Shown: in pieces, positions 5,171 to 38,640 of the stretch
Position numbering within the stretch: position 1 is the stretch's first letter
How the letters are laid out: every line of letters begins with the position of its first letter
From: Acidobacteriota bacterium
GTDB taxonomy: Bacteria > Acidobacteriota > Holophagae > Holophagales > Holophagaceae
Length of the DNA stretch: 38,640 bases
Assembly (NCBI GenBank): GCA_021786615.1
Contig: JAJYMZ010000160.1
Coordinates: 1 to 38,640 of the forward strand
Reading direction: 5' to 3'
Position numbers and translations under genes: made by a program
Notes under the pieces: generated by a model
Seen by the model: the letters and a program-made list of their open reading frames with translations, nothing else
Database searches by the model: none
Told to the model about the DNA's origin: nothing

Positions 5171-5183
5171 AGGAGGCATCAAC

Positions 5184-12880: not shown

Positions 12881-12935
12881 TCAGCCGCGCGTTTCTCTTG
12901 ACCTCCTAGTAGTGATCTGTGACTTGCCCGGGTAA

Positions 12936-12966
12936 GCCCCGGCAGCCATTGCCGGGGGCTTTTCCA
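12936..12966 (+). terminator. intrinsic terminator after the SCP2 gene
   Basis: GCCCCGGCA / loop GCCAT / TGCCGGGGGC (one bulged G), followed by TTTTCC. Confidence 0.7.
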
Positions 12967-13128
12967 CAGCCCTTGTGGGAATCTCCACCGTTACCCGCCC
13001 AAAGTTTTCTGTTCACAAGGTCTTTACGGATTGCTGCATTTTGAGTGCAGTGGATTCGGCCGGCAGCGCGCCTCCTTGCAGCCATGGCGCAAGTCGTTTG
13101 AATTCAGGCGCCGAAGCAGGCCAAGCTG

Positions 13129-13872: not shown

Positions 13873-13878
13873 GATTCA

Positions 13879-16599
13879 ATGAAACCTAGCTGGCGCGTTC
13901 TCGTAGTTCAGATGCTCCTGATCGCAGCGGTCTATCCGCTGGCAGCGAAATGCTCCTATCTGATGGCCTTTCCGGGGAGCCGGGATACCGCCATCTGGTT
14001 GCCCAAGGGCATTGCCCTGGCGGTGCTGCTGGTGGGCGGGGCGAAACTCTGGCCGGGGGTTTTCCTGGGGGCGCTGATCACCGTGATGTTGAACACCACA
14101 GCTCCAGCCTGGGTGAATCTTGGCATCGCCTCAGCCAACACCATCGAAATCTGCCTGGGTTACTGGCTCATGGCGAAGGCCGGCTTCGACCAGTGCATGG
14201 TCCGCCTGAGGGATGTGGTGGTACTTGTGCTCTTTGGCGGGTTAGTTTCCACTACCGTGGGCGCTTTGCTGGGAGCCACCACCTTTGCCGCCGGGGGCCT
14301 GCTTCCATGGAGCGCCTTCCCGCCCTTCTTCGGCCGCTGGTGGTTCGGGGAAGCCACCAGCGCCCTGCTGATCACTCCTATTCTGCTGATGGCAATGAAG
14401 CCAGTTCCCAAAGCCAGCCGAGCGGAGATCGCTGAATTCCTTGCGATGATGGGACTGCTCAGCCTGGTTTCCTTCTTTGTGTTTTTCCATGGAATGGGGT
14501 TCAGCGCCCAGCGTTATCAGCTGCCCTTCCTTGCGTTGCCCGTGGTGGTCTGGGCCAGCTTGCGCTTTGGCCAGAGAGGTTCAATCTTCGCCGTGGCCGT
14601 GGTGGCGGCTTTCGCCATTCCCGCCACCATCCATGGTCTTGGCCCCCTGGTGGCGGGAGCAGGGAATCCCTCAATGGTGCCGCTGCGCGCGTTTCTCGTG
14701 GTGCTGGCCCTTACTTCAATGGTGCTCAGCACCCTGCTTTCGGAAAAGCACATCGCGGAAGCCACCGCGGGGGAATCCGAGGGACGCTTCCGGATGGTGA
14801 CCGAGACGCTCGCGGTGCCTATGGTGATCATCGGCTATCCCGAGCCAGAAATCCTCTATGTGAACGGTCTCCTGGCGGAGCTGGTGGGGCAGGAAGCCAA
14901 GGACCTCATTGGGCGGCCGTCCCTTCCTTTCTACAGGCACCCCGAGGACCGGAAGGAGTTTCTCGCCCGGATCCAGAGGGATGGCCGCGTAGACAAGATG
15001 GAACTCGAGATGCTGACCACCAGCGGACCCAGACTGGTTGAAATAACCTCGAGAGTCATCAAATTCGGCGGCAGGTCCGCCTTCCTGACGGCCTTTTATG
15101 ATCTGACGGAACGGAAGAAGGCAGAGCAAGCGCTCCTCGACAGCGAAAACCGCTATCGCGCCATGAGTGAAGGCACCACGGATGGCGTGATCATGAATGA
15201 GAACGGTCTCATCATTGACGCCAATTACTCCGCCGCGAGGATGTGGGGGGGAACCGTCGAGGAGATGATCGGCCGCACCGCGTCCAGTCTCGCGGTGGAG
15301 GAGGACCGCGGGAAGATCGCTGAAATGGTTCGCTCGGGTAGCACCGCGCCTTATGAAATCCTAGGCCTGCGCAAGGACGGCAGTTCTTTTCCCGCGGAGA
15401 TTTCCGGGAAGTCCGTGATGTACCTGGGCCGCCTCGTTCGGGTCGCTTCCATCCGGGATCTCACGGAACGCAAACGCTCCGAGGAGGCTTTGCGGGAGAG
15501 CGAGGAACGGTACGCGCTGGTGTCCCAGGGTTCCAACGAAGGCATCTGGGACACGAATCTTCTGACGGGAGAAGTTTACTTCTCCGATCGCATGAAAGAG
15601 CTGCTGGGCTTGGCTCCCGAAACTCATCCCCCCAATGTAAGGGAATGGGGCCAGTGGGCCCATCCCGGCGACCAGGAAGCCATCCGCCAGGCCATTCACG
15701 AGCATTTCAAATACCGTCGCCCCTACGACATCGAGTTCCGCTTCAGAATGCCGAGCGGCGAATACCGGTGGTTCCGCTCCCGGGGCCAGGCCATCTGGAA
15801 CGCGGAAGGCCGGGCGACGCGCATGGCGGGCTCCATGAGCGACACCACGGCGCGGAAGTTGGCGGAAAAAGAATTGCTGGCAGCCAAAGAAGCCGCGGAA
15901 GCCGCCTCACGGGCAAAGAGCGAATTCCTGGCGGTGATGAGCCATGAGATCCGGACGCCCATGAACGCCATCATCGGCATGAACTACTTGCTTCAGCAAA
16001 CCAGCCTGGACGAGGACCAGGCGGATCTTGCGCAAACCGTGGGCAGCTCAGCCCAGAGTCTCATGTCCCTGATCAATGACATTCTCGACATCTCCAAGAT
16101 CGAGGCGGACCAGATGGAGTTGGAGGACCTCCCCTTTGATGTGCGGACGGTCGGGGCCGAAGTCAGGAATCTTTTCACGTCCCAGGCCGGGCAAAAGGGA
16201 TTGGCTTTTTCGGTGGATCTGGACGAGGCCATGCCACCCCTGCTGATGGGCGATCCTCAGCGGCTCCGCCAGGTCCTGGTGAATCTGCTGGGCAACGCCT
16301 TGAAATTCACCGAGCGCGGGGCCGTTCGGCTGCATATGGGCTTCAATGCGGAGGCGGGCCGGCTGGACGCGATGGTGGAGGACACGGGCATCGGCATTGC
16401 CGGAGAAAAACTGGCAGGTGTGTTTGACAAGTTCACCCAGGTTGATACCTCCATCACCCGGCGTTTCGGAGGCTCAGGCCTGGGGCTTGCCATCTCGAAG
16501 CACCTGGTGGAATTGATGGGCGGCACCATCAGGGTGGAGAGCATCTACCGGGAAGGCTCGGTGTTCCGCTTCTCCATTCCCTGGCGAATGCCTAAATAA
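13879..16599 (+). CDS. MASE1-domain, triple-PAS sensor histidine kinase
   Basis: 906 aa. N-terminal polytopic region has MASE1-like ...AIWLPKGIALAVLLVGGAKLWPGVFLGA. Three PAS/PAC-like blocks are each followed by DLTERK/DTTARK. H-box AVMSHEIRTPMN; G-boxes EDTGIGI and GGSGLGLAI. Confidence 0.85.
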   Translation: MKPSWRVLVVQMLLIAAVYPLAAKCSYLMAFPGSRDTAIWLPKGIALAVLLVGGAKLWPGVFLGALITVMLNTTAPAWVNLGIASANTIEICLGYWLMAKAGFDQCMVRLRDVVVLVLFGGLVSTTVGALLGATTFAAGGLLPWSAFPPFFGRWWFGEATSALLITPILLMAMKPVPKASRAEIAEFLAMMGLLSLVSFFVFFHGMGFSAQRYQLPFLALPVVVWASLRFGQRGSIFAVAVVAAFAIPATIHGLGPLVAGAGNPSMVPLRAFLVVLALTSMVLSTLLSEKHIAEATAGESEGRFRMVTETLAVPMVIIGYPEPEILYVNGLLAELVGQEAKDLIGRPSLPFYRHPEDRKEFLARIQRDGRVDKMELEMLTTSGPRLVEITSRVIKFGGRSAFLTAFYDLTERKKAEQALLDSENRYRAMSEGTTDGVIMNENGLIIDANYSAARMWGGTVEEMIGRTASSLAVEEDRGKIAEMVRSGSTAPYEILGLRKDGSSFPAEISGKSVMYLGRLVRVASIRDLTERKRSEEALRESEERYALVSQGSNEGIWDTNLLTGEVYFSDRMKELLGLAPETHPPNVREWGQWAHPGDQEAIRQAIHEHFKYRRPYDIEFRFRMPSGEYRWFRSRGQAIWNAEGRATRMAGSMSDTTARKLAEKELLAAKEAAEAASRAKSEFLAVMSHEIRTPMNAIIGMNYLLQQTSLDEDQADLAQTVGSSAQSLMSLINDILDISKIEADQMELEDLPFDVRTVGAEVRNLFTSQAGQKGLAFSVDLDEAMPPLLMGDPQRLRQVLVNLLGNALKFTERGAVRLHMGFNAEAGRLDAMVEDTGIGIAGEKLAGVFDKFTQVDTSITRRFGGSGLGLAISKHLVELMGGTIRVESIYREGSVFRFSIPWRMPK

Positions 16600-28806: not shown

Positions 28807-29823
28807 TCAAGCCAATTCACGGTTGATGCGACCCACCAGGCCTGGGCCCTCGAAGATCAGGGCGGAATAGATCTGGGCCAGCACAGCCCCCTCTTTCAGG
28901 GCTGCGGCCACCTCCTCTGGCGAACTGAGGCCGCCGCAGGCGATCAAGGGCAGGCGTCCCCGCAAAGTTTGCAACAGTCTTGCGCGCACGGACCGGGCCT
29001 TGACCGCGAGGCCCCGGCCGGAAAGTCCGCCCTGTCCCCAAGCCTGGACCTTGTTGTGGTTCAGGGCGCTTACGATGCTGCGATCCAGGGTCGTGTTGGT
29101 GGCGATGAGGCCTGAGATGCCAGAGGCAACGGCGACTTCCACGATGCCATCGAGCTCCTCGAAAGCCTGGTCTGGTGCCAGCTTGAGGAGCAGGGGCTGC
29201 GCTTCCAATCCCATTTCCCTGCGCGCTGCGAGCATCCCATCCAGCAATGGCCCCAGGGCCTTGGGCGCCTGGAGGTTCCTCAGCCCCGGCGTATTGGGGC
29301 TACTGACGTTGAGGGCGATGTAGTCCACCTGCGGCGCGATGAACCGGTAAGCCGCAACGTAGTCTTCAAGGGCATTTTCTTCAGGCGTGGCCTTATTCTT
29401 GCCAAGATTGCCGCCCACGATGAGGCCCCTGGGGCGCTCTTTCAAACGCGCGGCCACGACTTCAGCGCCTTCGCTGTTGAAACCCATGCGGTTCAGGATG
29501 ATGCCTTCAGAAGGCAGGCGGAAAAGCCGTGGGCGCGGGTTCCCGGGCTGGGGGCGGGGCGTGACGGTGCCGATTTCCACGTGGCCGAAACCCATGGATT
29601 TCCATAGAGGCAGAAGCCTGGCCCCCTTGTCGAGACCCGCCGCCAGCCCCAGGGGGGATGGAAAACGCAGGCCAAAGGCCTCCACCGCAAGGCCGGGGCC
29701 CAGCTTTGGATCAGGCAGGGGAAACCGCTGTGCCAGACCTCCGGCCCAGAACGCCAGATCATGCGCCCGCTCTGGGTCGAACGAGAAGAGCAGGGGGCGG
29801 ATAAGGCGGTAGAGATTAGGCAT
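28807..29823 (-). CDS. pyrD: dihydroorotate dehydrogenase (quinone), class 2
   Basis: Colinear with E. coli PyrD: LIRPLLFSFDPERAH, GLAAGLDK, GFGHVEIGTVTPRPQPGNPRPRLFRL, NRMGFN, NVSSPNTPGLR, IATNTT, GGLSG. Start moved to ATG 29823. Confidence 0.93.
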   Translation of the reverse strand: MPNLYRLIRPLLFSFDPERAHDLAFWAGGLAQRFPLPDPKLGPGLAVEAFGLRFPSPLGLAAGLDKGARLLPLWKSMGFGHVEIGTVTPRPQPGNPRPRLFRLPSEGIILNRMGFNSEGAEVVAARLKERPRGLIVGGNLGKNKATPEENALEDYVAAYRFIAPQVDYIALNVSSPNTPGLRNLQAPKALGPLLDGMLAARREMGLEAQPLLLKLAPDQAFEELDGIVEVAVASGISGLIATNTTLDRSIVSALNHNKVQAWGQGGLSGRGLAVKARSVRARLLQTLRGRLPLIACGGLSSPEEVAAALKEGAVLAQIYSALIFEGPGLVGRINRELA

Positions 29824-30245
29824 CAGTGCTTGGGGGCAGCCGGTGCAGCCTTGGCCACCACCGTCACCGTCGCGGTATCCGCGACACCCGGATGATCCTC
29901 CCGCTGCGCCTTCACGTGGAAGGTACCGGGCGTTGAAGGCGCGGTGTAGAGGCCGGTATGCGTGATTTCGCCGCCACCGGCTTCCACCACGGTCCACGTC
30001 ACGGGCTGGCGGGGGTAGCGGGGGCCATCGGGCTCGTAGTTGATCAAGGCGCTGAAGCTTTGGGTGGCGCCGGGAGCCAGGGTCACGGCTTTGGGACTGA
30101 TGGAGAGGGTGGGCTTGAAGGCGACGGCGTGGTCGCTTTGGAGGCGGCCCATGGCCGCGCGGCCCTTCCGGCCAGGAGGATTGAGGTCCCCGCCGGCGCA
30201 GGCCATCAGCGGGATCGCAAGAAACAGGACCGGCAGGATTTCCAT
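29823..30245 (-). CDS. lipoprotein with bacterial Ig-like (Big_2-type) domain
   Basis: Lipobox IPLMAC. SISPKAVTLAPGATQSF...GLYTAPSTPGTFHV. Its TGA shares one nucleotide with the pyrD ATG (29823). Confidence 0.5.
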   Translation of the reverse strand: MEILPVLFLAIPLMACAGGDLNPPGRKGRAAMGRLQSDHAVAFKPTLSISPKAVTLAPGATQSFSALINYEPDGPRYPRQPVTWTVVEAGGGEITHTGLYTAPSTPGTFHVKAQREDHPGVADTATVTVVAKAAPAAPKH

Positions 30246-30249
30246 GATT

Positions 30250-30909
30250 TCATACCTCCATCTCACGCACATCGAGCATCACCAGGGGGGGCTCGGTCTT
30301 GGCCTGGACTTCCTCTTGAGTCACGCCTGGAGCGACTTCCACCAGGCGCAGGCCTTCCCGGCCTGGCACCACATCAATGACCGCCAGCTCCGTGATGATG
30401 CGATCCACGCAGCGTGTGCCCGTCAGCGGCAGGCTGCATCTGCGGAGGATCTTCGGCTCCCCGTGCTTGCTGGTGTGTTCCATGACCACCACCACGCGCT
30501 TGGCCGCGGCCACGAGATCCATGGCGCCGCCCATGCCCTTGATCATTTTCCCTGGGATCATCCAGTTGGCGAGATTGCCTTCGATGTCCACCTGCATGGC
30601 CCCCAGGATGCTCAAGTCAATCTTGCCGCCGCGGATCATGGCGAAGCTTTCGGCGCTGCTGAAAAAACAAGCGCCAGGGGCTGCGGTGACGGTCTGCTTG
30701 CCTGCGTTGATGAGATCCGCGTCCACTTCCTCCGCCGTGGGGAAGGGCCCCATGCCCAGCAATCCGTTTTCACTCTGCAGGACCACTTCCATGCCTTCGG
30801 GGATGGCGCCCGCTACCAGCGTGGGAATGCCAATGCCGAGGTTGACGTAAAATCCATCCCGCAGTTCACGGGCTGCGCGGCGGACGAGCTGGTCGCGGGT
30901 CAGGGCCAT
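30250..30909 (-). CDS. scoB: 3-oxoacid CoA-transferase, subunit B
   Basis: [42 protein letters not shown], and VVMEHT..G.PKIL..CSLPLTG. Start trimmed to ATG 30909. Confidence 0.88.
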
Positions 30910-31047
30910 GGATGCTCCAGTGGTACCGTTCCAGCATACCGGAGGGGCTGAAATCGCGCCCCAGGACAGATGGCCGGATCCGGCCAGACCCTTCCTGAGC
31001 CTCTCGCGATGAGGGCCATCGCCCAAGAAAGCAGGGGCGATCCTGTT

Positions 31048-31449
31048 TCACTCCGGCTTGCGCTCCAGGGTCCGCAGGTACAGCACCACCTGGTTGATCT
31101 GCGCATCGGTCAGGGTGTGGCCCCAGGGAGGCATCAAGGGGGAAAGGCCTACACCCGCGCCGCCGCGGCGGATGGCATCAGCCAGTTCTGCGTCGGTCTT
31201 TTTCTTTTGAAAAGCCGGATCAGAATAGTCGCGCGGATGAGGATCGAGGTTGAAGGCGTTGAACCCGTCCCCCGCGCCGCTCTCGCCATGGCAGAGCATG
31301 CAGTAGTGCTGATAAGTGTCCTTTCCAAGCCGCAGTTCATAACTGAGAGGCGCGGCCCCGGCGGTTGCGGCGAGTTTGACTTCCTTGGTTTTCTTGGAAC
31401 ACCCCGCCAGTAAGACCAGCCCCAGGGCTACGATGAGCGTACGATTCAT
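31048..31449 (-). CDS. monohaem class-I cytochrome c lipoprotein
   Basis: Lipobox LLAGC, a single CMLCHG, and LMPPW as the Met-ligand region. ATGA overlap with the upstream gene. Confidence 0.8.
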   Translation of the reverse strand: MNRTLIVALGLVLLAGCSKKTKEVKLAATAGAAPLSYELRLGKDTYQHYCMLCHGESGAGDGFNAFNLDPHPRDYSDPAFQKKKTDAELADAIRRGGAGVGLSPLMPPWGHTLTDAQINQVVLYLRTLERKPE

Positions 31450-33473
31450 CCCTTGCCTCCGCTCGATTTCTGGGCGCCCGGGGCCCGAAGGGTTTCAAGG
31501 TAGGCCGTGATCCGCAGCGCATCGGTATCGGTGAGCCCGTAGTTGGGGCATCGCACGTCGGCGCGCCAGGCCTGGGGATCTTTAAGCCACTTGAATACCC
31601 AGCCCGGCTTGAGCCGCGTGGATGTATCCGTGAGCGGGGGGCCGTAGTATCCACCGGATGGGCCGATGATATGGCAGGCCCGGCAGCCATTCGCCACGTA
31701 TAGGCGCTGGCCTTCGGAAGCATTTTGGTCCGAGGCCGGGCGGCCCGCGAAGGGATCTTCCGGGATGGCCGGATTGACGTAGAAGCTCTCGATGGCGTCC
31801 GCCAGCTTCTCCGCCTCATCCTTCGGGATGCGAAAAATCGGCATGCGCTCTTCGAGAATGGGGCGGATGGTGAAGGAGAGCATCAGGTAATTGACCAGCC
31901 AATCGCGCTTGACCTTGCTGCCTTCGAAGGTGAGCGGCGCCGTTGAGATGTCCCCTCCCTGGGTTCCGATCTGATGGCAGGACAAGCAGCGGTATTGTTG
32001 GACCAGCTGGCCGATGGCGCCGCCTGGAATGGGCGCGGAGGTGCCATGGGAAACGGGATGGTAGGCTTCTGGCACGGGTTTGGAGCCGAGGGATAGCAAG
32101 GCGGTGACGATGGCCTGCACGTCCTCGTTCTTGAACCCATAGTTGGGCATCTTGAGCCCGGCGCTGAAGGAACGCGGGTCCATGAGCTTGGCGGCGGTCC
32201 AGGCGGGAAGCGTCCTGGCGAGATCCGTCCTCCGGCCGAAATCCAGCGAGGCGGCGCGCTTGTCGCCAAGGCCGTTGAGGTCCGGCCCGAATTTCTCCTT
32301 GATTGTGCCCTGGGCAGGATCGTGGCAGGCGAAGCATCCGAGGCCTCGAAAGGCTTTCGCGCCCTTTTCAGCCAGGGTCTGGTTGACGTGCAGCGGGTCC
32401 AAGATTCCCTCAGGCGCATCGAAGTCCTTGAGCTCAGTCTCGAAGTAGGCGACCAGATCGCGCGATTCCGAATCCGAGAAGTGATATCTGGGCATCCGGG
32501 TTTCAGGCGAAAAAGCATGGGGGTCGCGGATGAAGGCCAGGAGCCAGCCGCGGGAGGCCATGGAGGCTACTTTGGAGAGTTCCGGGGCCGAACCATTGCC
32601 CTTGCCTTCGACGGTATGGCAGGTAATGCATCTCGATTCGGAGAAGATTTTCTTGCCGGAGACCGCATCGCCCGGTGCCTCTTGAGAGGCCGCCGCCACC
32701 TTGGCCGCCAGTTCCGGGTTCACGGGCCTGGAGAACAAATAATGGGTCAATTCCTCGATTTGCTGGGTGTCCAGCTGGAAATTAGGCATTGAAGAATTCG
32801 GATCCATGGCCCGGGGGTTTTTCAGCCATTGGCGCACCCACTCCCCGCCAGTCTTGACGGCCACTGAGTTGAGGGGCGGCGCCTCCGAACGGAACTGCTC
32901 ATGGCCCCGCACCGAGTGGCAGGCATAGCAACCCGCCTTGGTGATCAGGGCCCGGCCCCGGGAGAGGAGCGCTGCCTGGGGCACAGCTTCGGAAGTGTGG
33001 CACCGGCCACACCCAGCCTCGATGTTTGCCAGCGGCGTGAGGGGCGAACTGGAATCGGCGGTGGTCCCATGGGCGTCCCCGCGAACCGTGGCAAGGCCCT
33101 CGCCGCTGTGGCAGGAAGTACATCCCATTCGATCAGAATCGCCGGGCGTGTGGGCCGTCCAAGGATGCAGGCGATGGGGTTCGGGTGCGTTGGCCATGGC
33201 AGGATCCGCGACGCCCTGGTGGCAGGTAGTGCAGCGGTCCACACGGTTGCCGAAGTCACGCAACCAGATCTGGCTGATGGCCACGGGGCGGTTCTGGTAG
33301 GTCTTTGCATCCTTCAGGCTGTGAGCCCGGCTGGCTCCGAGTTTCCGGAACTGCTCCTGGATGGAACGGTACTCCCGGAAATAGTTCTTGGCGGGTGAAA
33401 TGGCCAATGTGAACAGGAATGCCACGCTCGTGATGGCGAAGACCCGGCGGAGCCGGAATGAATCGGTTTTCAT
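31446..33473 (-). CDS. membrane-anchored octahaem cytochrome c (3 clustered haems + 5 class-I-like modules)
   Basis: Start at ATG 33473 (ATGA overlap). One N-terminal TM helix. Eight CXXCH motifs: CTTCH, CTSCH, CGRCH, CYACH, CITCH, CFACH, CLSCH, CRACH. Confidence 0.85.
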   Translation of the reverse strand: MKTDSFRLRRVFAITSVAFLFTLAISPAKNYFREYRSIQEQFRKLGASRAHSLKDAKTYQNRPVAISQIWLRDFGNRVDRCTTCHQGVADPAMANAPEPHRLHPWTAHTPGDSDRMGCTSCHSGEGLATVRGDAHGTTADSSSPLTPLANIEAGCGRCHTSEAVPQAALLSRGRALITKAGCYACHSVRGHEQFRSEAPPLNSVAVKTGGEWVRQWLKNPRAMDPNSSMPNFQLDTQQIEELTHYLFSRPVNPELAAKVAAASQEAPGDAVSGKKIFSESRCITCHTVEGKGNGSAPELSKVASMASRGWLLAFIRDPHAFSPETRMPRYHFSDSESRDLVAYFETELKDFDAPEGILDPLHVNQTLAEKGAKAFRGLGCFACHDPAQGTIKEKFGPDLNGLGDKRAASLDFGRRTDLARTLPAWTAAKLMDPRSFSAGLKMPNYGFKNEDVQAIVTALLSLGSKPVPEAYHPVSHGTSAPIPGGAIGQLVQQYRCLSCHQIGTQGGDISTAPLTFEGSKVKRDWLVNYLMLSFTIRPILEERMPIFRIPKDEAEKLADAIESFYVNPAIPEDPFAGRPASDQNASEGQRLYVANGCRACHIIGPSGGYYGPPLTDTSTRLKPGWVFKWLKDPQAWRADVRCPNYGLTDTDALRITAYLETLRAPGAQKSSGGKG

Positions 33474-34183
33474 GACTGCACCATATGGGTCCATGGCCAG
33501 ATGAACGACCAGCCTGGGCCACGGAAGAATGTGCCAATGATCGTCAAGGCCGCCGCAAGGATGACAAACCAGGTCATGATCCATTGCGGAAGCGAAAGAC
33601 GGGCCATGGCCTGTCTCCAGGTTCCTCCAGTGGAACCGCCTCGCGCCAGGTACATGGCCCCGGCCACAGCGGCGGTGGGCACCGCGGCAGCCCAACATTG
33701 GAAGCCCGCGAAAAAGAGCACCAGCGCGGATGCGGCAACCGCAAGGATCTGGGTGGTCCTCTTCTCATCCTTGCCTTCCCACAGCGGACCCGCGCTCAGG
33801 TTGATCCGGGCGTAGGGGATCACCGCGAGAGCGACTACCACCAGGCCGGGGATGAGCACACCAGCCACGATGGGCGGATAATAGTGGAGCAGTTCCTGCA
33901 ATCCCAGGAAGTACCAGGGAGCTTTGGCCGGATTGGGAGTCTCGACGGGGTTCGCGATCCCCTCTAGCGGCGCGTTGAACACGAGCGCCAGGATCGCCAG
34001 GAAGATCACCACGATCTGGAAGAGGATGACTTCCCGGATGATCAGGTGCGGGTAGGCCATCACGAATTTTTCAGAGCTTCGCCGGACGGAGGGGCGGAGG
34101 TCGGGCCGGAGCAGGGCCACGCGCCGCGGCGTCTCGACAGGGTCGTTGGATTCAACCGCGGTGAGCGGGGGAAGGGCGCTCAT
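33470..34183 (-). CDS. cytochrome b C-terminal half / b6f subunit-IV-like protein
   Basis: [17 protein letters not shown] (PEWY-region equivalent) plus several TM helices. ATGA overlaps at both ends. Confidence 0.8.
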
Positions 34184-34950
34184 GGCTCCTCCTCATGGAA
34201 AGCATCGGGTGCCTCCTCGGAGGGGCCCTTGACGCCGCCGTCTTTCCGGATGCGCCAGATGTGGACGCCAAGGAACAAGAAGAGGACGACCGGCAGGAGC
34301 ACGCAGTGCAGGACGTAAAAACGCAGCAGCGCGTTCTCGGAAACGGCGTTTCCACCCAACAGGAAGAAGCGGAGCTTGTCGCCGATGACGGGCGCTTCCC
34401 GCGCCATGTTCGTTCCGACCGACACGCCCCAGAACGCGAGCTGGTCCCACGGGAGAAGATACCCGGTGTAGGAAAGGAACAGCGTCAGGACAAGGAGAAC
34501 CACCCCGACGACCCAGTTGAACTGGCGCGGGGGCTGGTAGGCTCCGTGGTAGAAGACGCGCAGCATGTGGAGGAAAGCGCCAAACACCATCAGGTGCGCC
34601 CCCCACCGGTGCAGGTTGCGGAGGAACACGCCGTTGTCCACGACGTATTTAAGTTCCTTCATGTCCTGGTATGCCTGGGGGACTGAAGGGTGGTAGTAGA
34701 ACATCAGCGGAACGCCCGAGGCGACGAGCACGATCACGCACACCATCGTGATGCCGCCCAGCCAATACGTATGCTTGAAGCGAAGGGCCTTCTCCCGCAC
34801 TTTGACCGGATGCACATGGAGAAAAAGGTTCTCGAAAACGATGAGCGACCGGTTGCGGCTCGTCTCGGCAACGCCATGCCGGACGATGGAGCGGTAGACC
34901 GAGGTTCCACGGAACCATCGGCCAAGGGAATCGAGCGAGGGAATGTTCAT
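34180..34950 (-). CDS. cytochrome b (b6-type N-terminal half)
   Basis: Helix B: [15 protein letters not shown], with 13 residues between the His ligands. Helix D: [16 protein letters not shown], with 14 residues between them, which is the b6-type spacing. [12 protein letters not shown] is also present. Confidence 0.9.
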
Positions 34951-35438
34951 GCGCGGAACACCTTTCCATGGGGGATGGTGATGGCGGTGTCCACCACGAG
35001 CTCTCCCTTGTCATCCACCTGCACATCAAGCCAGGGAAGCGCGCGAGGCGCCGGGCCATGAGTCACGTTGCCTTCCAGGTCGAACTTGCTCCCGTGGCAA
35101 GGACAGGCGATGAGCCCTTCATCCGAGACGTAGCGCGTGATGCACCCCAGGTGCGTGCAGACCGCGGAAAGGGCGAACACGCCGCCGGCCGTGCCGATGA
35201 CGAAGGCCCTTTGCTCCTTGTTGAAACGCACGGTGCCTTCGGTGTAATCAGACGGATTCCCGGCCTTGAATTTCGTGGGTGGCTCGAACAGAACTTTGGG
35301 TTTCAGAAAATCCAAGGTCACCACGCCCGCGCCCACCGCGGCGATGGCACAGGCCCCAAGGCCGACCCGGTTCATGAACTGCCGCCGGGTTGGGTCGTCG
35401 TCTTCGAGCAAGAGTTCCTCAGGCGGATTGTTCGACAC
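34947..35438 (-). CDS. Tat-exported Rieske [2Fe-2S] protein
   Basis: CTHLGC and CPCHGSKF boxes, with twin-arginine [18 protein letters not shown]. Start is ambiguous. GTG 35438 overlaps the upstream gene by 20 nt. TTG 35411 lies 4 nt after a GAGGA and 7 nt after the upstream stop. ATG 35537 would overlap by 119 nt. Confidence 0.88.
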
Positions 35439-37269
35439 GGGGGCCAGACTGTGGTTGGGTTCTGAAGCTCTGCATGGTGATGGTCCCCACGGGGCAGCGC
35501 GCGGCGCAGAGGCCGCACCGGATGCAGGTCTCCTCATCCTTGATGAAGATCGCGCCCTGGCGCCGGCCTTCCCACAGGATGGGGGCGAGTTCCCGGGCCG
35601 CGTCGGGCAGCGTTTTGATCAGGCTGGAAGGCAGGATTTCGATGCAGTCTTCGGGACAGATGTCCTGGCAACCTCCGCAAAGAATGCACTCGGTTCCGTC
35701 CTCGGGAATCTGTTCGAAGATGGTGTTGGTCCAGCAATGCAGGCAGCGGGTCCCTTCAAGCTGGGCGGCGCCTTCACTGAAACACTCCTCCACTTCGGCG
35801 ATGCCGATGCGGCGGGAAATGGGGCGCGTGGGTGGATGCTGCCTGGGAATCCCCTCATAATCCAGCGCCCTTTCGTAGCGGGACGGAATGTCTATTTCGA
35901 CGGTGACTTCATCCACGGGGCAGGGGCGTCCCTGGAGGTGCTCATCAATGGATCTGGCGGCCTGCTTTCCGTCCGCGATGGCTTGGATGGCGATGCGGGG
36001 GCCGAAAGCGGCATCGCCGCCCGCGAAGATGCCCGGCGCCGTGGTCGCAAGGGTGTCCGGGTCAATGACGATCCTGCCTTGCCGCGTTTCGACGCCATCT
36101 TCGGCTGAAAGGAAGGAAAAGTCTCCGGTCTGCCCGATGGAGACGATGACCGTGTCGGTGGGCACGATCTCCTCGGAACCTTCGTGGAAGGTCGGAGCGA
36201 AGCGCCCGTTTTCATCGAAGAGGCGGGAAACCTGCCTGAATTCGATGCCCGTGACGGCACCCTTCTCGCCCACCAGCCGTTTCGGGCCGACGCTATGCAT
36301 GAAATGGATGCCTTCCCGCAGGGCTTCGTCAATTTCTTCCCTGGCCGCAGGCATTTCCGCCTCGGACTCCAGGGAGCACACCACGACGTCCCGGGCGCCG
36401 AACCGCACGGCGCTGCGAGCCACATCCAGGGCCTGCACCACCGAAAGGTTCCGTTCCATCCGGATGCTTTCGCCACCGCGGGCGGCCGTGCGGGCCACGT
36501 CCAGGGCCACGTTGCCGCCACCGATGATGACCACGCGGTGGCCCATCTCGACTTTATAGCCGAGGTTGATGTTCAACAGATAATCAATGCCTTTGAGCAC
36601 CCCATCGAACTCCATGCCGGGGATGGTGAGATCCCGGCTGCGCATGGCGCCGACGCCCAGGAAGATGGCCTTGTAGCCCTGCGCTTTTAAATCGGTCAGT
36701 GTGAGCCCTGAGCCCAGCCTGACATTGGTTCTGAGTTCGACGCCGAGGGACAAGATGGCATTCACTTCCAGTTGGATGAGTGCTCGGGGCAGCCGGTACT
36801 CGGGAACGCCCAGGCGCAGCATTCCACCGGCTACGGGCGCCGCCTCGAAAATGGTGACCGGATAGCCCAGCAGCGCTAGGTCATGGGCGCAGGCCAGTCC
36901 GGCGGGGCCCGAACCGATCACCGCGACCTTTTCACTTGGGTGCCGCGCGGCCCGCTGTCCATAAATTTCAGAAAGGATCGAGAGGTCCAGCATGCTTTCC
37001 ACGCCGAACCTCTCGGAGACAAATCGTTTCATGGCCCGGATGGCGATGGGCGCGTCCAGTTCCCCCCGCCGGCAAACTGCTTCGCAGGGGGCGGCGCAGA
37101 TGCGGCCGCAAATTGAGGCCAAGGGATTGGGCCGGCGAGCCACGGCATAGGCTTCGCGGTACTTCCCCTGCGCAATGAGCGTGACGTACTTGCCCGCTTC
37201 GGTATGCACCGGGCAGGCCCATTTGCAGGGGAAATTCTTTTCAAGCCACTCCTGGCTGACATCGGCCAT
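35419..37269 (-). CDS. GltD/SudA-like NAD(P)H-dependent Fe-S flavoprotein with C-terminal 2x[4Fe-4S] ferredoxin domain
   Basis: GltD-type N-terminus: CKWACPV...NPLASICGRICAAPCEAVC. Two dinucleotide folds: VAVIGSGPAGLACA and VVIIGGGNVALD. IFAGGD is present. The C-terminus has CLHCW, CILCGGCQDICP and CIRCGLCAARCP. No signal peptide. Confidence 0.88.
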   Translation of the reverse strand: MADVSQEWLEKNFPCKWACPVHTEAGKYVTLIAQGKYREAYAVARRPNPLASICGRICAAPCEAVCRRGELDAPIAIRAMKRFVSERFGVESMLDLSILSEIYGQRAARHPSEKVAVIGSGPAGLACAHDLALLGYPVTIFEAAPVAGGMLRLGVPEYRLPRALIQLEVNAILSLGVELRTNVRLGSGLTLTDLKAQGYKAIFLGVGAMRSRDLTIPGMEFDGVLKGIDYLLNINLGYKVEMGHRVVIIGGGNVALDVARTAARGGESIRMERNLSVVQALDVARSAVRFGARDVVVCSLESEAEMPAAREEIDEALREGIHFMHSVGPKRLVGEKGAVTGIEFRQVSRLFDENGRFAPTFHEGSEEIVPTDTVIVSIGQTGDFSFLSAEDGVETRQGRIVIDPDTLATTAPGIFAGGDAAFGPRIAIQAIADGKQAARSIDEHLQGRPCPVDEVTVEIDIPSRYERALDYEGIPRQHPPTRPISRRIGIAEVEECFSEGAAQLEGTRCLHCWTNTIFEQIPEDGTECILCGGCQDICPEDCIEILPSSLIKTLPDAARELAPILWEGRRQGAIFIKDEETCIRCGLCAARCPVGTITMQSFRTQPQSGPRVEQSA

Positions 37270-37274
37270 GTTAG

Positions 37275-37853
37275 TTACTTCGCGATCTCAAAATCCGCCT
37301 GGGTCGCGCCTGAGACTTTCACGGTCCTCTGAGTCCCTTTGAGCTTCTGATGCCAGACCTTCACCGTTAAGGAACCATCCGGAACGCCCGGAATGGTGTA
37401 ACTGCCATCGGCCTTCGTCACGGCAAAGTAGGGAGTAGGCACGGCCACCACAAAGCCTTCCATTTCTGGGTGGACCTTGCAGAGCAGCGTCGCAGTGCAT
37501 TCCGTCTTGAAGGTGAAGCTCTTCTTCTGGCCCTGGGGCCAGGTGCCGAGGTTGAACTTGCCGCAGCAGGCATCCGGAGAGAAGACGTTGTGCAGCACCG
37601 CGTCGGAGTTCTTGAAATCCACGGTAGTGCCGATGAGCACTGGCATCACGTGAGGGGTGAAAACCAGGTTCTTCTGGTCTATTTCGGCGTGCTTGGCGGG
37701 GGCGGTGAAAGTCTTGCCGGGGACCGCAGCCACGTAGACGACGGCGTTGGCGCTGTCGCGGACGCCTTTGCAGGTGACCTTTCCGTGGATGTCACCAGCG
37801 CTGAGGCCCGTGGCAAGGCTGAGGGTGAGCGCGCTGAAGAGGATTGTTTTCAT
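37275..37853 (-). CDS. secreted type-1 copper (cupredoxin) protein with carboxypeptidase-regulatory-like flanks
   Basis: Signal peptide. GTTVDFKNSDAVLHNVFS supplies His ligand 1. LLCKVHPEMEGFVV gives Cys-x2-His-x2-Met, an amicyanin-type loop. The His-to-Cys distance is 37 aa. The C-terminus has DGSYTIPGVPDGSLTVKV. Confidence 0.72.
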   Translation of the reverse strand: MKTILFSALTLSLATGLSAGDIHGKVTCKGVRDSANAVVYVAAVPGKTFTAPAKHAEIDQKNLVFTPHVMPVLIGTTVDFKNSDAVLHNVFSPDACCGKFNLGTWPQGQKKSFTFKTECTATLLCKVHPEMEGFVVAVPTPYFAVTKADGSYTIPGVPDGSLTVKVWHQKLKGTQRTVKVSGATQADFEIAK

Positions 37854-37870
37854 GATCGTTCTCTCTTTCT

Positions 37871-38640
37871 TTAAAAGGCGACACGCAAGACGGCGGCGAT
37901 GTCGAAGTTCTGGGATACGTTCAGGTCCTTGTGGTACTCGAGCATGGCCTTGACGTTCGCGGCCAGCAGGTAGCTGAGGTTTGCGTTCATGAAGCGGAGG
38001 GGCTTGATGCTTGTATCCCCGGGCGCCAGGCGCTCGTAACGGAGCGATGCCTGGAGGGGCGGCAGGATGACGTAGTCAGCCTGGACGAACCAGCCATTGA
38101 AGTCGCGGCTGCTCTCGGAAAGGATGAGCGTGTTGCCCGAGTCGCGGAGCTGGAGCTTGTCGTTGCCGTGGAGGATGACGCCGAAGAGATTCAGATCCCC
38201 GAACATCCAGGAGGCGAAGAGACCTGTGCGGGTGTACTGCGTGTCCTGCATGTGAAAGACGACAGGGTTGCCATTGGCGTCCGTGGCGGAGCCGGTGGTG
38301 GGATCCACCAACATTCCACTGGGGTCGGTGACCGCGTTGTCAATGCCCGTGCCGTTCCCGCTGAGGGCCAAAAGGCCGATGCGGAAGGAATTCTCACGCC
38401 AGTTTTCCGGGGGCAGATTCACGCCGGTGGTATCCCCATCGAGGCCCATTCCGCCGAACTTGTAGTCCACGCGAGCGTAGAAATCCTTGTGGGAGTTGTT
38501 GTTGAAATTGCCGTTGGGCAGGCCTGTGGCATCCATGCCGCCGGGGCCGATCTTGGAGGCGAAGCCGAAGGTGTAGAAGAAGCGGTGGGCCGCCACGCCG
38601 TAGACCTCGATGCCCCGCACCCGCGCAGGGAGGCTGACGA
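37871..38640 (-). CDS. probable outer-membrane beta-barrel protein (N-terminus lies outside the window)
   Basis: The frame stays open to nt 38640. Shows alternating aromatic/polar strand pattern, Gly/Asn/Asp-rich loops, and C-terminal ...AAVLRVAF. The stop lies 17 nt before the cupredoxin start. Confidence 0.5.
   Translation of the reverse strand, partial: VSLPARVRGIEVYGVAAHRFFYTFGFASKIGPGGMDATGLPNGNFNNNSHKDFYARVDYKFGGMGLDGDTTGVNLPPENWRENSFRIGLLALSGNGTGIDNAVTDPSGMLVDPTTGSATDANGNPVVFHMQDTQYTRTGLFASWMFGDLNLFGVILHGNDKLQLRDSGNTLILSESSRDFNGWFVQADYVILPPLQASLRYERLAPGDTSIKPLRFMNANLSYLLAANVKAMLEYHKDLNVSQNFDIAAVLRVAF

Follow-up and report, generated by a model that had tools for sequence, protein, structure and literature searches.

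Which respiratory complex is encoded by an operon that joins Rieske and cytochrome b genes to the gene of an NAD(P)-binding flavoprotein, and in which direction would electrons move through it? The question is raised by a locus of a Geothrix-like Holophagae bacterium, situated at the end of the 38,640-nucleotide stretch of DNA analysed here (the window).

Operon layout and conservation in Acidobacteriota

All eight open reading frames are co-directional on the minus strand and make up an operon of eight genes, seven and a half of which lie in the window (Table 1). The tight packing described in the first-pass annotation is borne out by the junction coordinates, with four ATGA overlaps (34947-50, 34180-83, 33470-73, and 31446-49) and gaps of 5-17 nt, i.e., 17 nt between the porin and cupredoxin genes and 5 nt between the cupredoxin and flavoprotein genes. 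The longest Rieske reading frame starts at 35537, giving an overlap of 119 nt with the flavoprotein gene; translation more likely begins at the TTG at 35411, which lies behind GAGGA and 7 nt past the flavoprotein stop. A consensus scan found no promoter-like site within the operon, and terminator-like matches in it did not exceed the level of the shuffled control. The profile-HMM searches proposed earlier assigned Pfam domains to all reading frames except the partial first gene, for which there was no Pfam match. An MtrB/PioB porin-cytochrome conduit is also encoded in the window.

Table 1. Predicted products of the operon, in gene order, with their positions in the window
Predicted product	Position	Strand	Basis
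Cyc2-type fused monohaem cytochrome-porin, 3' part (255 codons)	37871..38640	-	tblastn orthologues, motif
Periplasmic type-1 copper cupredoxin, 192 aa	37275..37853	-	Pfam Copper-bind + CarboxypepD_reg
Cytoplasmic NAD(P)-binding Fe-S flavoprotein, 616 aa, GltD/NfnB family	35419..37269	-	Pfam, PDB matches
Rieske [2Fe-2S] protein, Tat-exported, TM-anchored	34947..35411	-	Pfam, motifs, PDB matches
Split four-helix b6-type cytochrome b, 256 aa	34180..34950	-	Pfam Cytochrome_B, His spacing
Subunit-IV-like membrane protein, 237 aa	33470..34183	-	Pfam Cytochrom_B_C, Qo motif
TM-anchored octahaem cytochrome c, 675 aa	31446..33473	-	eight CXXCH, Pfam
Monohaem class-I cytochrome c lipoprotein, 133 aa	31048..31449	-	CXXCH, lipobox, Pfam

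The operon order is collinear in 80 acidobacterial genome loci from Holophagae and Terriglobia, wherever the contig is long enough, with 35-84% identity between the proteins. The genes located downstream in the window were found in none of these 80 related loci, i.e., the flanks are not conserved. As the order is collinear in 80 loci while the flanking genes differ, the juxtaposition of the genes is not a matter of chance; loss of synteny in relatives had been named beforehand as the finding that would point to chance, and synteny holds across the two acidobacterial classes. Judged from sequence, this is a conserved respiratory operon of Geothrix-like Acidobacteria in which a Rieske/cytochrome b complex is joined to an NAD(P)-binding flavoprotein. 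Synteny and domain content agree with the earlier view of a single module, in which a quinone-side Rieske/cytochrome b part, a cytoplasmic flavoprotein and a periplasmic haem/copper branch leading to the outer membrane belong together.

Predicted subunits and cofactors

The flavoprotein carries the Pfam domains Fer4_20 and Pyr_redox_2 and a C-terminal Fer4_7, the C-terminus being a 2x[4Fe-4S] ferredoxin domain, and the protein has neither a signal peptide nor a TM helix, a hydropathy scan finding no hydrophobic segment. Its PDB matches are, best first, 9bov/9bp5, NfnA 9n5u, 8oh5_C, NfnI 5jca_L, and then GltD; 9bp5 is also the reported structural neighbour of Kuste4570. Conserved cysteine motifs were found at C15/C19, at C54/58/62/66, in a CxxC near 509, and in CILCGGCQDICP and CIRCGLCAARCP. 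This architecture corresponds to a linear wire of FAD and four Fe-S clusters that lacks an NfnA-like second branch, and flavin-based bifurcation within the flavoprotein itself therefore seems unlikely. Two homologues of the flavoprotein (37 and 46% identity) are free-standing, with no adjacent Rieske/cytochrome b genes.

The Rieske protein matches the Pfam families Rieske, TM_PetC, and UCR_Fe-S_N (a Tat/PetC anchor) and contains the twin-arginine motif RRQF along with CTHLGC and CPCHGSKF. The serine of CPCHGS is conserved in every flavoprotein-adjacent complex examined, and the tyrosine is replaced by phenylalanine, as it is in Kustd1480, which has a measured potential of +335 mV (PMC12954380). 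From these two residues only, we infer a high potential for the Rieske cluster.

For cytochrome b, the assignment to the split b6 type is confirmed by Pfam (Cytochrome_B, E 4e-45) and by the histidine pairs H114/H128 and H215/H230, which are separated by 13 and 14 residues, respectively. The best PDB matches are cytochromes b6 (E 1e-43), with the alignment starting at residue 61. The first-pass annotation overlooked that Trp63 replaces Cys35 of b6, so that the haem cn cysteine is missing from the present cytochrome b variant, which is a new point. Upstream of the aligned part is a 60-residue N-terminal extension with an invariant His45, and the motif N-x-x-L-H45 aligns with His43 of the anammox cytochrome b (Kuste4571). 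This histidine was found in all flavoprotein-adjacent cytochrome b sequences examined and was absent from the three canonical comparators, i.e., the second Rieske/cytochrome b cluster of L024/L025, the cytochrome b of L082, and b6 from the PDB. An AlphaFold3 study (2025) proposed the N-terminal histidine as ligand of an extra haem b. The protein also scores 270 bits against NCBIfam ExtP, slightly below the cutoff of 290. The alignment with the Geobacter ExtP model begins at residue 39, so that the model may cover the His45 motif; as the ExtP cluster has no flavoprotein, the histidine would in that case mark a clade of cytochrome b and not docking of the flavoprotein.

The subunit-IV-like protein matches Cytochrom_B_C (E 1.8e-5) and contains an 11-letter Qo motif. 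A hydropathy scan gave four clear segments (51-69, 105-123, 146-164, and 202-220); a fifth helix, which the scan did not call, can be read from the sequence at about 165-185, suggesting about five TM helices. Compared with SUIV of the anammox complexes, it has two extra helices ahead of the last one.

The octahaem protein has an N-terminal TM helix (8-26) and CXXCH motifs at positions 81, 118, 155, 182, 282, 380, 496, and 597, all eight of which are conserved in 59 orthologues. Four closely spaced haems are followed by four class-I cytochrome c domains, with Pfam matches to Cytochrom_C (four times) and to Cytochrome_C7 and Paired_CXXCH_1 (c7/c3-type). The lipoprotein has one CXXCH, the lipobox LLAGC and a Cytochrome_CBB3 domain; its best NCBIfam match is Leptospirillum cytochrome 579, at a weak 31.5 bits that is far below the cutoff.

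The first gene is cut by the window end, and its N-terminus, with signal peptide and haem motif, would lie beyond it. Amphipathic beta segments and a C-terminal phenylalanine (...VLRVAF) agree with the earlier call of an outer-membrane barrel, which missed that the protein appears to be a Cyc2-type fused cytochrome-porin; this is a further new point. In 46 loci, tblastn finds orthologues (44-59% identity) whose genes immediately precede the cupredoxin gene. At full length they comprise a signal peptide, AxPxF[A/S]RKY-xxx-CxxCH-xxx-PxL and a barrel of about 430 aa, the N-terminal motif matching the published AXPXFAR[Q/K][T/Y] of Cyc2, a 16-strand cytochrome-porin Fe(II) oxidase (PMC8406198). 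In 71 of 74 orthologous loci, the gene next upstream of the cupredoxin gene bears the Cyc2 motif. The barrel orthologue of Geothrix terrae has a weak Porin_O_P match (E 8e-4, below cutoff). The nine c-haems counted earlier stand for the window (8 + 1 CXXCH), and ten are expected for the complete operon because the orthologues of the truncated barrel bear the N-terminal haem motif.

The cupredoxin has a signal peptide, and its Copper-bind domain (23.3 bits, cutoff 21.2) is fused to a CarboxypepD_reg-like beta-sandwich. Its PDB sequence matches are a blue copper protein, amicyanin, and the cupredoxin domain of NirK (E 0.002-0.02). H88, C125, H128, and M131 do not vary among 18 homologues and are conserved in 75, and the predicted type-1 copper gene following a Cyc2-type gene is likewise new.

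Related complexes in anammox bacteria and other phyla

The comparison with Kuenenia made in the first-pass annotation was apt, as the best PDB matches of the Rieske protein are Kuste4569 (9rk4, E 3.5e-22) and Kustd1480 (9rk3, E 3.3e-19). By gene content and sequence similarity, the six genes from flavoprotein to monohaem c would encode a flavoprotein-bearing Rieske/cytochrome b complex of the known anammox kind, with a flavoprotein-Rieske-cytochrome b core that matches Kuste4569-73 and Kustd1480-85; the operon adds Cyc2 and the copper protein to it. AlphaFold3 models place a path from haems bN/cN through the new haem b and four Fe-S clusters to FAD (PMC12954380), and all subunits co-migrate in Kuenenia according to de Almeida et al. 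(2016), as cited in the same paper.

Outside Acidobacteriota synteny of the core holds in at least five other lineages. It was found in Planctomycetota, Myxococcota, Nitrospinota, three further contigs, and a JGI contig listed without DNA, as well as in Brocadiales-type metagenome loci. The gene order varies, with Rieske-flavoprotein in anammox bacteria and flavoprotein-cytochrome b-Rieske in Nitrospinota. In six of the eight sampled lineages the core adjoins all or part of a high-potential terminal module (NarGH-like, cbb3 oxidase, NosZDF, HAO-like multihaem protein, or EB_dh/NxrC-like protein); the Brocadiales-type loci and the DNA-less JGI contig showed none. Dibrova et al. (PMC5600118) described a cytochrome b "subfamily G" whose members are found together with NAD(P)-binding Fe-S oxidoreductases in many lineages, the genes being close to each other "in many other cases." Together with the anammox complexes this means that the core is neither an undescribed system nor confined to anammox bacteria, both of which had been suggested.

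Direction of electron flow

The reading that we place first, giving it somewhat less than an even chance, is a quinol:NAD(P)+ reductase that works by bifurcation at the Qo site, one electron entering the haem/copper/Cyc2 branch while its partner goes to NAD(P)+. The Qo site, made up of cytochrome b, subunit IV, and the Rieske head, would oxidise menaquinol, which we take from descriptions of Holophagae species to be the pool quinone. The high-potential electron would pass from the Rieske cluster through the octahaem c to a pool of monohaem c and cupredoxin, which would exchange electrons with terminal reductases and, via Cyc2 in the outer membrane, with dissolved Fe2+/Fe3+ at the cell surface. 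The second electron would be driven through the membrane via haems bL and bH, probably also via the extra haem b held by the His45 pair of the dimer, and on through four Fe-S clusters to FAD, two such electrons reducing NAD(P)+. The fall of the high-potential electron would pay for this reduction, and the complex would add to the membrane potential. We infer the whole of this mechanism, since NAD(P)+ reduction has been demonstrated for no complex of the kind, and several points stand against it. First, the usual activity of GltD/NfnB-family enzymes is NADPH oxidation. Second, it is not obvious why a heterotroph that reduces Fe(III) would need to make NAD(P)H from quinol. Third, the haem cn cysteine used in the anammox models is missing here. 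Fourth, Fe(II) oxidation is the one known activity of Cyc2, and it would supply electrons to the high-potential pool rather than drain it. Finally, there are the two flavoprotein homologues away from Rieske/cytochrome b genes and the His45 motif possibly shared by ExtP.

It is conceivable, if rather unlikely, that NAD(P)H primes a Q-cycle instead, with electrons passing from FAD through the Fe-S clusters to b haems that reduce quinone on the N side, and leaving from Qo through Rieske, octahaem c, cupredoxin, and Cyc2 to a high-potential acceptor such as soluble Fe(III), i.e., a surface-directed outlet. NADPH oxidation is normal for the family to which Pfam and PDB matches assign the flavoprotein, the window encodes the MtrB/PioB conduit, the variable neighbours in other phyla are mostly terminal reductases, and in the Geobacter ext cluster, which is induced by Fe(III), an OprP-like porin accompanies a Rieske/cytochrome b module. 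Fe(III) and electrodes are known electron acceptors of the host lineage (PMC12285243), and Dibrova et al. (PMC5600118) regard such enzymes as membrane-anchored dehydrogenases. However, Hauser et al. considered this direction wasteful where complex I exists, a high-potential type of Rieske protein would be unnecessary, and there is no evident Qi site because the haem cn cysteine is missing. Moreover, Fe(III) reduction was never shown for Cyc2, and its 16-strand barrel handles dissolved iron only (PMC8406198).

An "uphill" module for Fe(II) oxidation is improbable. Electrons would pass from Cyc2 to cupredoxin and c cytochromes, which would form a branch point as rusticyanin does in Acidithiobacillus, and from there to the quinone pool and NAD(P)+, driven by proton-motive force and reversed or confurcating Qo chemistry. 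Fe(II) oxidation is the sole demonstrated function of Cyc2 (PMC8406198), and the set of Cyc2, cupredoxin, c cytochrome, and bc complex has its counterpart in the rus and petI operons, the latter of which includes an NAD-linked accessory gene, sdrA (PMC10654088). The weak resemblance of the monohaem c to cytochrome 579, the presence of Geothrix in nitrate-reducing Fe(II)-oxidising enrichments, and the core relatives in nitrite oxidiser phyla and anammox bacteria, which need reverse electron flow, point the same way. On the other hand, an electron that enters at the Rieske cluster needs a low-potential partner electron to get to haem bL, and a single complex alone therefore cannot carry Fe(II) electrons to NAD(P)+. 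Neither terminal oxidase nor carbon-fixation genes were found in the operon or the window. Holophagae are not known as lithoautotrophs.

Least probable is an ordinary b6-type quinol:cytochrome c/cupredoxin oxidoreductase with a normal Q-cycle, the flavoprotein and Cyc2-like protein being co-transcribed but unbound and having separate jobs: the Qo elements are canonical (Rieske, PxWY-type motif, four histidines), physical evidence of association is limited to the co-migrating Kuenenia subunits and two flavoprotein homologues stand free, but in some 80 genomes of Acidobacteriota and in at least seven further lineages the flavoprotein gene adjoins Rieske/cytochrome b genes despite changes in order, the cytochrome b next to it bears the N-terminal histidine extension that the canonical comparators lack, and some Holophagae carry a second, canonical Rieske/cytochrome b cluster by which the Q-cycle role is already covered.

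With quinol:NAD(P)+ reduction as the preferred reading, Geothrix-like bacteria would offer culturable hosts in which this unproven route for making NAD(P)H may be tested.

Gene order and conservation of the operon

Eight open reading frames, all on the minus strand and running in the same direction, were called between positions 31048 and 38640 of the window (see table). The eight-gene operon proposed in the first-pass annotation is borne out by ORF calling, by Pfam and by the coordinates of the junctions, with four ATGA start/stop overlaps lying exactly where they had been placed and remaining gaps of 17 and 5 nt. The nine c-haems claimed for the part of the operon within the window were likewise recovered, as eight CXXCH motifs in the large cytochrome and one in the small one, and so was the 13/14 His spacing of cytochrome b (H114/H128 and H215/H230). 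The Rieske protein is likely to start at TTG 35411, 7 nt past the flavoprotein stop, and not with the long ORF's first ATG. No promoter-like sites were found within the operon by a simple consensus scan, and terminator-like matches in it were no more than in shuffled controls. The earlier observation is confirmed, and its interpretation is supported in part.

Positions and assignments of the operon genes, of other features of the window and of features in related loci (L-numbers are handles of retrieved homologous loci; core, flavoprotein, Rieske and cytochrome b genes)
Feature	Sequence	Position	Strand	Assignment
Gene 1, partial outer-membrane gene	window	up to 38640	-	No Pfam match; reading frame leaves the window, N-terminus outside
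Gene 2, cupredoxin	window		-	Pfam Copper-bind, 23.3 bits (cutoff 21.2), then CarboxypepD_reg
Gene 3, flavoprotein, 616 aa	window		-	Pfam Fer4_20, Pyr_redox_2, C-terminal Fer4_7
Gene 4, Rieske protein	window		-	Pfam Rieske, with Tat/PetC-anchor signatures
Gene 5, cytochrome b	window	34180-34950	-	Pfam Cytochrome_B, E 4e-45
Gene 6, subunit IV	window		-	Pfam Cytochrom_B_C, E 1.8e-5
Gene 7, octahaem cytochrome c, 675 aa	window		-	Pfam: four class-I cytochrome c domains and c7/c3-type matches
Gene 8, small cytochrome c	window		-	One CXXCH
Genes directly downstream of the operon	window	28807-31026		CoA-transferase subunit; class-2 dihydroorotate dehydrogenase (PyrD)
308-aa multihaem cytochrome, then 833-aa porin	window	4244-7685	+	Three Paired_CXXCH_1; MtrB/PioB family, Pfam E 1e-107
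Two-component system and 460-aa multihaem cytochrome	window	7740-9873, 10117-11499	-	Near the MtrB/PioB pair
Flavoprotein and Rieske in one ORF	L081	6001-8322		773 aa
Two tandem Cyc2-motif genes	L008	4626, 6087		Before the cupredoxin gene
Two tandem Cyc2-motif genes	L016	4641, 6088		Before the cupredoxin gene
Second Rieske/cytochrome b cluster	L024	216-3080		Canonical
Second Rieske/cytochrome b cluster	L025	580-3483		Canonical
Flavoprotein without adjoining core	L082, Nitrospirota MAG	8001-15590		Canonical Rieske/cytochrome b genes (CFGG, no His motif) 4 kb downstream
Two cupredoxin-CarboxypepD_reg homologues	L132, Scalindua-like metagenome contig	5871-6380, 8360-8869	-	40-49% identity
Orphan Rieske gene	L132	9863-10300	+	Kuste4569-like
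Core	L083/L085, Planctomycetota			Then NarG/NarH-like genes
Core	L084, Myxococcota			Then molybdopterin enzyme and its Fe-S subunit
Core	JGI contig, no assigned lineage			Acidobacterial architecture
Core	L086, Nitrospinota			Preceded by EB_dh/NxrC-like gene
Core	L087, no assigned lineage			Then cbb3 oxidase genes
Core	L170			Then NosZ, NosD, NosF
Core	L171			Then HAO-like multihaem cytochrome

To follow conservation, all eight proteins of the operon were searched by tblastn in 80 acidobacterial loci taken from a genome scan, one per species. Cupredoxin, flavoprotein, Rieske, cytochrome b, subunit IV, octahaem c and monohaem c stand in this order in every one of the 80 loci whose length allows it to be seen, and some 20 of these belong to Sulfotelmatobacter/Acidobacteriaceae (Terriglobia), with 35-58% identity. 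The flavoprotein is 81% identical to the Geothrix terrae copy, and its numerous close relatives come from Holophagaceae and 'Thermoanaerobaculia' MAGs. The window genes directly downstream of the operon are syntenic in none of the 80 loci, and in G. terrae the operon lies between topA and dprA of the opposite strand. As the order is constant and the flanks differ, the module travels as a unit. Synteny had been named beforehand as a point on which the proposed system could fail; the order is kept across the 80 loci, the flanks are not, and a chance juxtaposition of the genes is ruled out by this. In one MAG (L081) the flavoprotein and Rieske genes are called as a single ORF, which could reflect a genuine fusion, or else the loss of a stop codon or a read-through error in a long-read assembly, and this single case from a long-read MAG was not accepted as proof of physical association. 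Elsewhere in the window the 308-aa cytochrome and the 833-aa porin form a classical porin-cytochrome extracellular electron conduit, with a two-component system and a further multihaem cytochrome nearby.

Relation to known Rieske/cytochrome b complexes

The operon had been put forward as a candidate undescribed system whose only known comparable clusters were those of anammox bacteria, and neither claim holds for its core. The flavoprotein, Rieske and cytochrome b genes are of the type described for anammox bacteria (Kuenenia Kuste4569-4574 and Kustd1480-1485; Kartal 2013; de Almeida 2016; Hauser 2025) and by Dibrova et al., and the core is also found in Acidobacteriota and other phyla, with further cases reported by Dibrova et al. 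Genes for Rieske protein, cytochrome b, subunit IV and a GltD/NfnB-like NAD(P)-binding Fe-S flavoprotein share one operon, are kept in the 80 loci, and make up the identical core gene set of Brocadiales-type loci. The latter came from a metagenome scan seeded with Kuste4569, a Rieske protein of the anammox bacterium Kuenenia, which gave relatives of 66-83% identity; Kuenenia itself was not among them. In these loci the order is Rieske, flavoprotein, cytochrome b, subunit IV and multihaem c, and identity to the window proteins is 36% for the flavoprotein, 50-52% for cytochrome b and 38-40% for the Rieske protein. The two best PDB matches of the window Rieske protein are 9rk4 (Kuste4569) and 9rk3 (Kustd1480), and the best solved relatives of the flavoprotein are 9bov/9bp5, followed by NfnA, NfnI and GltD; 9bp5 is also the reported structural neighbour of Kuste4570 (PMC12954380).

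In Kartal 2013, NAD(P)+ reduction driven by bifurcation at the Qo site was proposed for some Rieske/cytochrome b complexes, and co-migration of their subunits was seen in Kuenenia (de Almeida 2016, as cited in PMC12954380). Rieske potentials of +303 and +335 mV have since been measured, and an AlphaFold3 model proposes a path from haem bN/cN via a predicted new haem b on His43 and four Fe-S clusters to FAD (Hauser 2025; PMC12954380). Cytochrome b of 'subfamily G' was noted to co-occur with Fe-S oxidoreductases that bind NAD(P), the genes lying close together 'in many other cases' (Dibrova et al.; PMC5600118).

The window complex resembles the anammox complexes in its Rieske protein, in its split b6-type cytochrome b with an N-terminal His (His45 in the window, His43 in anammox), in a subunit IV of apparently five helices, in a TM-anchored multihaem c that replaces cytochrome f, and in a GltD/NfnB-like flavoprotein with four Fe-S motifs and the same nearest structure. 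It differs from them in seven respects. First, the flavoprotein gene precedes the Rieske gene, whereas it follows it in anammox bacteria. Second, cytochrome b lacks the CxGG cysteine and hence haem cn. Third, the two putative extra helices of subunit IV are placed before the last helix, whereas they are appended C-terminally in anammox bacteria, and they may therefore have a separate origin. Fourth, the flavoprotein contains an insertion and exceeds the anammox one by about 40 aa. Fifth, the octahaem c is of another type. Sixth, the partner module is Cyc2 with a cupredoxin and not an HAO-like octahaem protein. Seventh, the host belongs to a lineage of heterotrophic Fe(III) reducers that have no anammoxosome. 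The window complex is a variant of a known but functionally unproven kind.

The cysteines of the four flavoprotein Fe-S motifs (two N-terminal and two C-terminal [4Fe-4S]) are kept across phyla, from Acidobacteriota to the anammox-type proteins, and the motifs could form a wire from the membrane side to FAD, as modelled for the anammox type; no TM helix was found in the flavoprotein. Cytochrome b carries a 60-residue N-terminal extension, alignment to cytochrome b6 beginning at residue 61, and within it N-x-x-L-His45 is shared without exception by 72 acidobacterial sequences. The residue of the Brocadiales-type cytochrome b that aligns with His45 is His43, and His43 of Kuste4571 is the proposed ligand of an extra haem b (Hauser et al.; PMC12954380). 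The N-terminal His is present in all flavoprotein-adjacent cytochrome b sequences examined and missing from three canonical comparators, namely a Nitrospirota cytochrome b, the second Rieske/cytochrome b cluster of some Holophagae loci (L024 and L025) and cytochrome b6. His45 is a candidate ligand of an extra haem b. The second cluster of L024 and L025 is followed by a nine-CXXCH cytochrome and lies upstream of the Cyc2 gene, at a distance of a few kb; the cytochrome b of this cluster has an ordinary b6-like N-terminus, KKEVPIHRWTIFYYLGG, without the His45 extension. At the haem cn motif the window cytochrome b reads TYWLGG, with Trp63 replacing Cys35 of b6, whereas the anammox-type sequences read TWCMGG. 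CxGG is also missing from the homologues of Myxococcota, Nitrospinota, Planctomycetota, L087 and L170, and among the flavoprotein-linked cytochrome b sequences examined it was found only in the anammox-type sequences and in L171. The correlation given for subfamily G (PMC5600118) is not followed by a split cytochrome b that lacks CxGG. In subunit IV a hydropathy scan gave four clear TM segments, and a fifth (about 165-185) was read from the sequence. The Rieske motif is CPCHGSKF, in which Ser is kept and Tyr is replaced by Phe as in Kustd1480; taken as a proxy, it may point to a Rieske cluster of high potential (above +300 mV) in an organism that uses menaquinone.

With cytochrome b6f the window complex has in common that the His residues of its four-helix cytochrome b are spaced 13/14, that subunit IV is a separate protein bearing a PxWY-type motif, that the Rieske protein is b6f-like and that a cupredoxin is the likely acceptor (cf. 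plastocyanin). The window complex differs in lacking the haem cn cysteine and cytochrome f (octahaem c instead), in a subunit IV of about five helices in place of three, in the 60-residue extension and in the flavoprotein of the operon; it was not assigned to cytochrome b6f in view of haem cn, cytochrome f and subunit IV. The Geobacter extHIJKLMNOPQS cluster (Rieske ExtO, cytochrome b ExtP, ExtQ and ExtS) also combines, in a metal reducer, a Rieske/cytochrome b module with multihaem cytochromes and an OprP/phosphate-porin-like outer-membrane protein (ExtI). The window cytochrome b scores 270 bits on the NCBIfam ExtP model (cutoff 290) and subunit IV 61 on the ExtQ model (cutoff 150), matches that appear to link the window complex to the ext module. 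Membership of ExtOPQS was rejected, as both scores are under the cutoffs and the ext context has neither flavoprotein nor cupredoxin; its porin is without a haem motif, and it adds a rhodanese and 5-, 10- and 12-haem cytochromes. ExtP, although from a cluster without flavoprotein, may share the His motif, as its NCBIfam model aligns from residue 39. Flavoproteins of the NfnAB/GltD/Bfu type have the same N-terminal two-cluster Fer4_20 domain and the same FAD and NAD(P) Rossmann domains, and are the top PDB matches of the window flavoprotein (E 1e-95 to 1e-45). The window protein differs from them in an extra C-terminal 2x[4Fe-4S] domain, in the position of its gene among membrane cytochromes, and in that no NfnA-like or GltB-like partner is encoded, so that the flavin lacks a second exit. 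An NfnA-like gene is absent from the operon and from all 80 loci, and flavin-based bifurcation of the Nfn type was rejected for want of this partner and on account of the single linear wire. Formate dehydrogenase beta subunit, the JGI name for many flavoprotein homologues, does not apply, as the acidobacterial operon encodes no molybdopterin subunit.

An exhaustive search with the flavoprotein among representatives at 50% identity gave 22,666 matches, and among the best 150 of these many are full-length, about 600-650 aa, with 37-55% identity. Named relatives include members of Myxococcota, Nitrospirota, Nitrospinota and Planctomycetota. Eleven genomic contexts outside Holophagae were examined, with Planctomycetota counted twice (two look-ups, one lineage), and in eight of them the flavoprotein gene adjoins Rieske and cytochrome b genes. 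Where a redox module was seen beside the core, it is a terminal module of high potential or a portion of such a module. Two contexts have a flavoprotein without linked Rieske/cytochrome b genes. In the remaining one, a Nitrospirota MAG (L082), three small ORFs, unknown or membrane, and cytochrome c genes come after the flavoprotein gene, and the arrangement hints that the flavoprotein is anchored to the membrane in another way. A Scalindua-like metagenome contig (L132) carries two homologues of the cupredoxin-CarboxypepD_reg protein beside an orphan Rieske gene, after which no flavoprotein or cytochrome b gene was found.

The Cyc2-type gene and the cupredoxin

Full-length orthologues of gene 1 have a signal peptide, the motif A-x-P-x-F-[A/S]-R-K-Y-x3-CxxCH-x3-P-x-L and a putative barrel of about 430 aa. 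The combination of AXPXFAR[Q/K][T/Y] upstream of a single CXXCH with PXL four residues after it is described as unique to Cyc2 (Keffer et al. 2021; PMC8406198), a fused cytochrome-porin with a 16-strand OprO/P-like barrel that oxidises Fe(II) (PMC8406198). A signal peptide and a single N-terminal CXXCH were found in 40 of the 44 full-length orthologues; the N-terminus of the window copy lies outside the window. Orthologues of the Geothrix type match the Cyc2 motif exactly (AFPIFARKY-QTS-CVTCH-TVY-PKL), and PAFSRKY and PSYARQT variants occur in others. With a slightly relaxed pattern, and among loci with enough upstream DNA, a Cyc2-motif gene stands directly before the cupredoxin gene in 71 of 74 acidobacterial loci, Terriglobia (PSYARQT) included, the three exceptions being a rearrangement, a frameshift and a motif variant. 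No Cyc2-motif gene was found at the non-acidobacterial core loci. The length, with a median of 434 aa after the motif, agrees with the 365 aa or more expected of Cyc2, and indirect signs of a barrel are a sub-threshold Porin_O_P match, a C-terminal Phe and amphipathic segments. The family gave no match in a profile search of the PDB, and no model in Pfam or NCBIfam names it. Gene 1 is best read from these motifs as a Cyc2-type cytochrome-porin, with barrel and Fe(II) oxidase activity predicted. An MtrB-type conduit was rejected for gene 1, which has no MtrB_PioB match and only about 450 aa; the true MtrB/PioB gene lies elsewhere in the window. In two loci (L008 and L016) two Cyc2-motif genes stand in tandem, and in five others (L004, L007, L021, L027 and L050) a divergent type (PSFARQT...PEL), to which the PSYARQT variant of the Terriglobia loci is related, takes the place of the common one.

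In the cupredoxin, H88, C125, H128 and M131 are invariant and correspond to the type-1 copper ligand set. Matches to amicyanin and blue-copper proteins in the PDB are weak, and a single-sequence AF2 model (pLDDT 32.8) is unusable for the fold; ligands and the Pfam Copper-bind match nevertheless indicate a type-1 copper cupredoxin. The monohaem c has a weak likeness to Leptospirillum cytochrome 579 (NCBIfam), and in one paper Leptospirillum Cyc572 clusters with acidobacterial homologues.

Direction of electron flow and implications

From the parts list, cofactor motifs, topology signals and conservation, which the sequence establishes, we infer a mechanism. Holophagae use menaquinone, and menaquinol would be oxidised at Qo. 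One electron would pass to the Rieske cluster, the octahaem c and a pool of monohaem c and cupredoxin, which Cyc2 may connect with dissolved extracellular iron. The second electron would travel via bL, bH and perhaps the extra haem b on His45 to the four Fe-S clusters, FAD and NAD(P)+. This direction, towards NAD(P)+, is favoured by the high-potential-type Rieske motif, by the O2, N2O and nitrate modules that recur beside the core in other phyla and by the separate canonical Rieske/cytochrome b cluster of some relatives. A wider reading, possible if rather doubtful, is that the operon encodes a single trans-envelope machine in which Qo bifurcation couples surface iron redox (Cyc2 and cupredoxin) to cytoplasmic NAD(P)+ reduction, with His45 holding an additional interfacial haem b and haem cn missing, as one version of a widespread quinol:NAD(P)+ reductase family that plugs into the high-potential module of its host. 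If this reading is true, the family would serve host modules for O2, N2O, nitrate, nitrite or iron, and Fe(III)-reducing Holophagae would have an unrecognised route to NAD(P)H that is linked to iron and independent of complex I.

The main rival is a cytoplasmic end that runs in reverse, NAD(P)H being the donor and Cyc2 the outlet. Several points speak against the forward direction: enzymes of the GltD family usually oxidise NADPH, Geothrix-type Holophagae are regarded as heterotrophic and Fe(III)-reducing, haem cn is missing, the one function known for Cyc2 is Fe(II) oxidation and, to our knowledge, NAD(P)+ reduction by such complexes has been biochemically demonstrated nowhere. Geothrix fermentans is reported to need unusually high electrode potentials for maximal current, which would suit an outlet through Rieske protein and cupredoxin. 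The second rival is an Fe(II) 'uphill' route resembling rus/petI. Orthologues of gene 1 share with Cyc2, with Acidithiobacillus rus-petI and with Leptospirillum Cyt572-Cyt579 the signal peptide, the single CXXCH, AXPXFAR[K/Q][Y/T], PXL and an apparent barrel with a weak OprP-type signal, and, as in rus/petI, a Cyc2-type gene is followed by a cupredoxin (cf. rusticyanin), a small c cytochrome and a Rieske/cytochrome b complex (cf. petI). Against this likeness, the window system lies in one operon, with a flavoprotein beside its b6-type bc complex and no oxidase genes, many orthologues carry Ser/Tyr motif variants, and the host is not a known iron oxidiser. Third, the flavoprotein might not bind the complex at all.

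Biochemical testing of the proposal of Kartal 2013 has been held back largely by slow-growing anammox enrichments as models. Since the core is present in isolated Geothrix species (G. terrae and G. campi), in which native purification, complexome profiling and possibly genetics would be more practical than with anammox bacteria, the question of bifurcation becomes more directly testable. Comparative handles are the invariant N-terminal His, natural variants with and without haem cn, and interchangeable high-potential partner modules. A hard link of a Rieske/cytochrome b-flavoprotein complex to a Cyc2-type cytochrome-porin and a cupredoxin is unreported, no report having been found in the literature of Cyc2 joined to such a complex or of Cyc2 in Geothrix. 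That a Cyc2 type and a cupredoxin are tied to the complex in a lineage regarded as iron-reducing bears on the use of cyc2 as a metagenome marker of iron oxidation.
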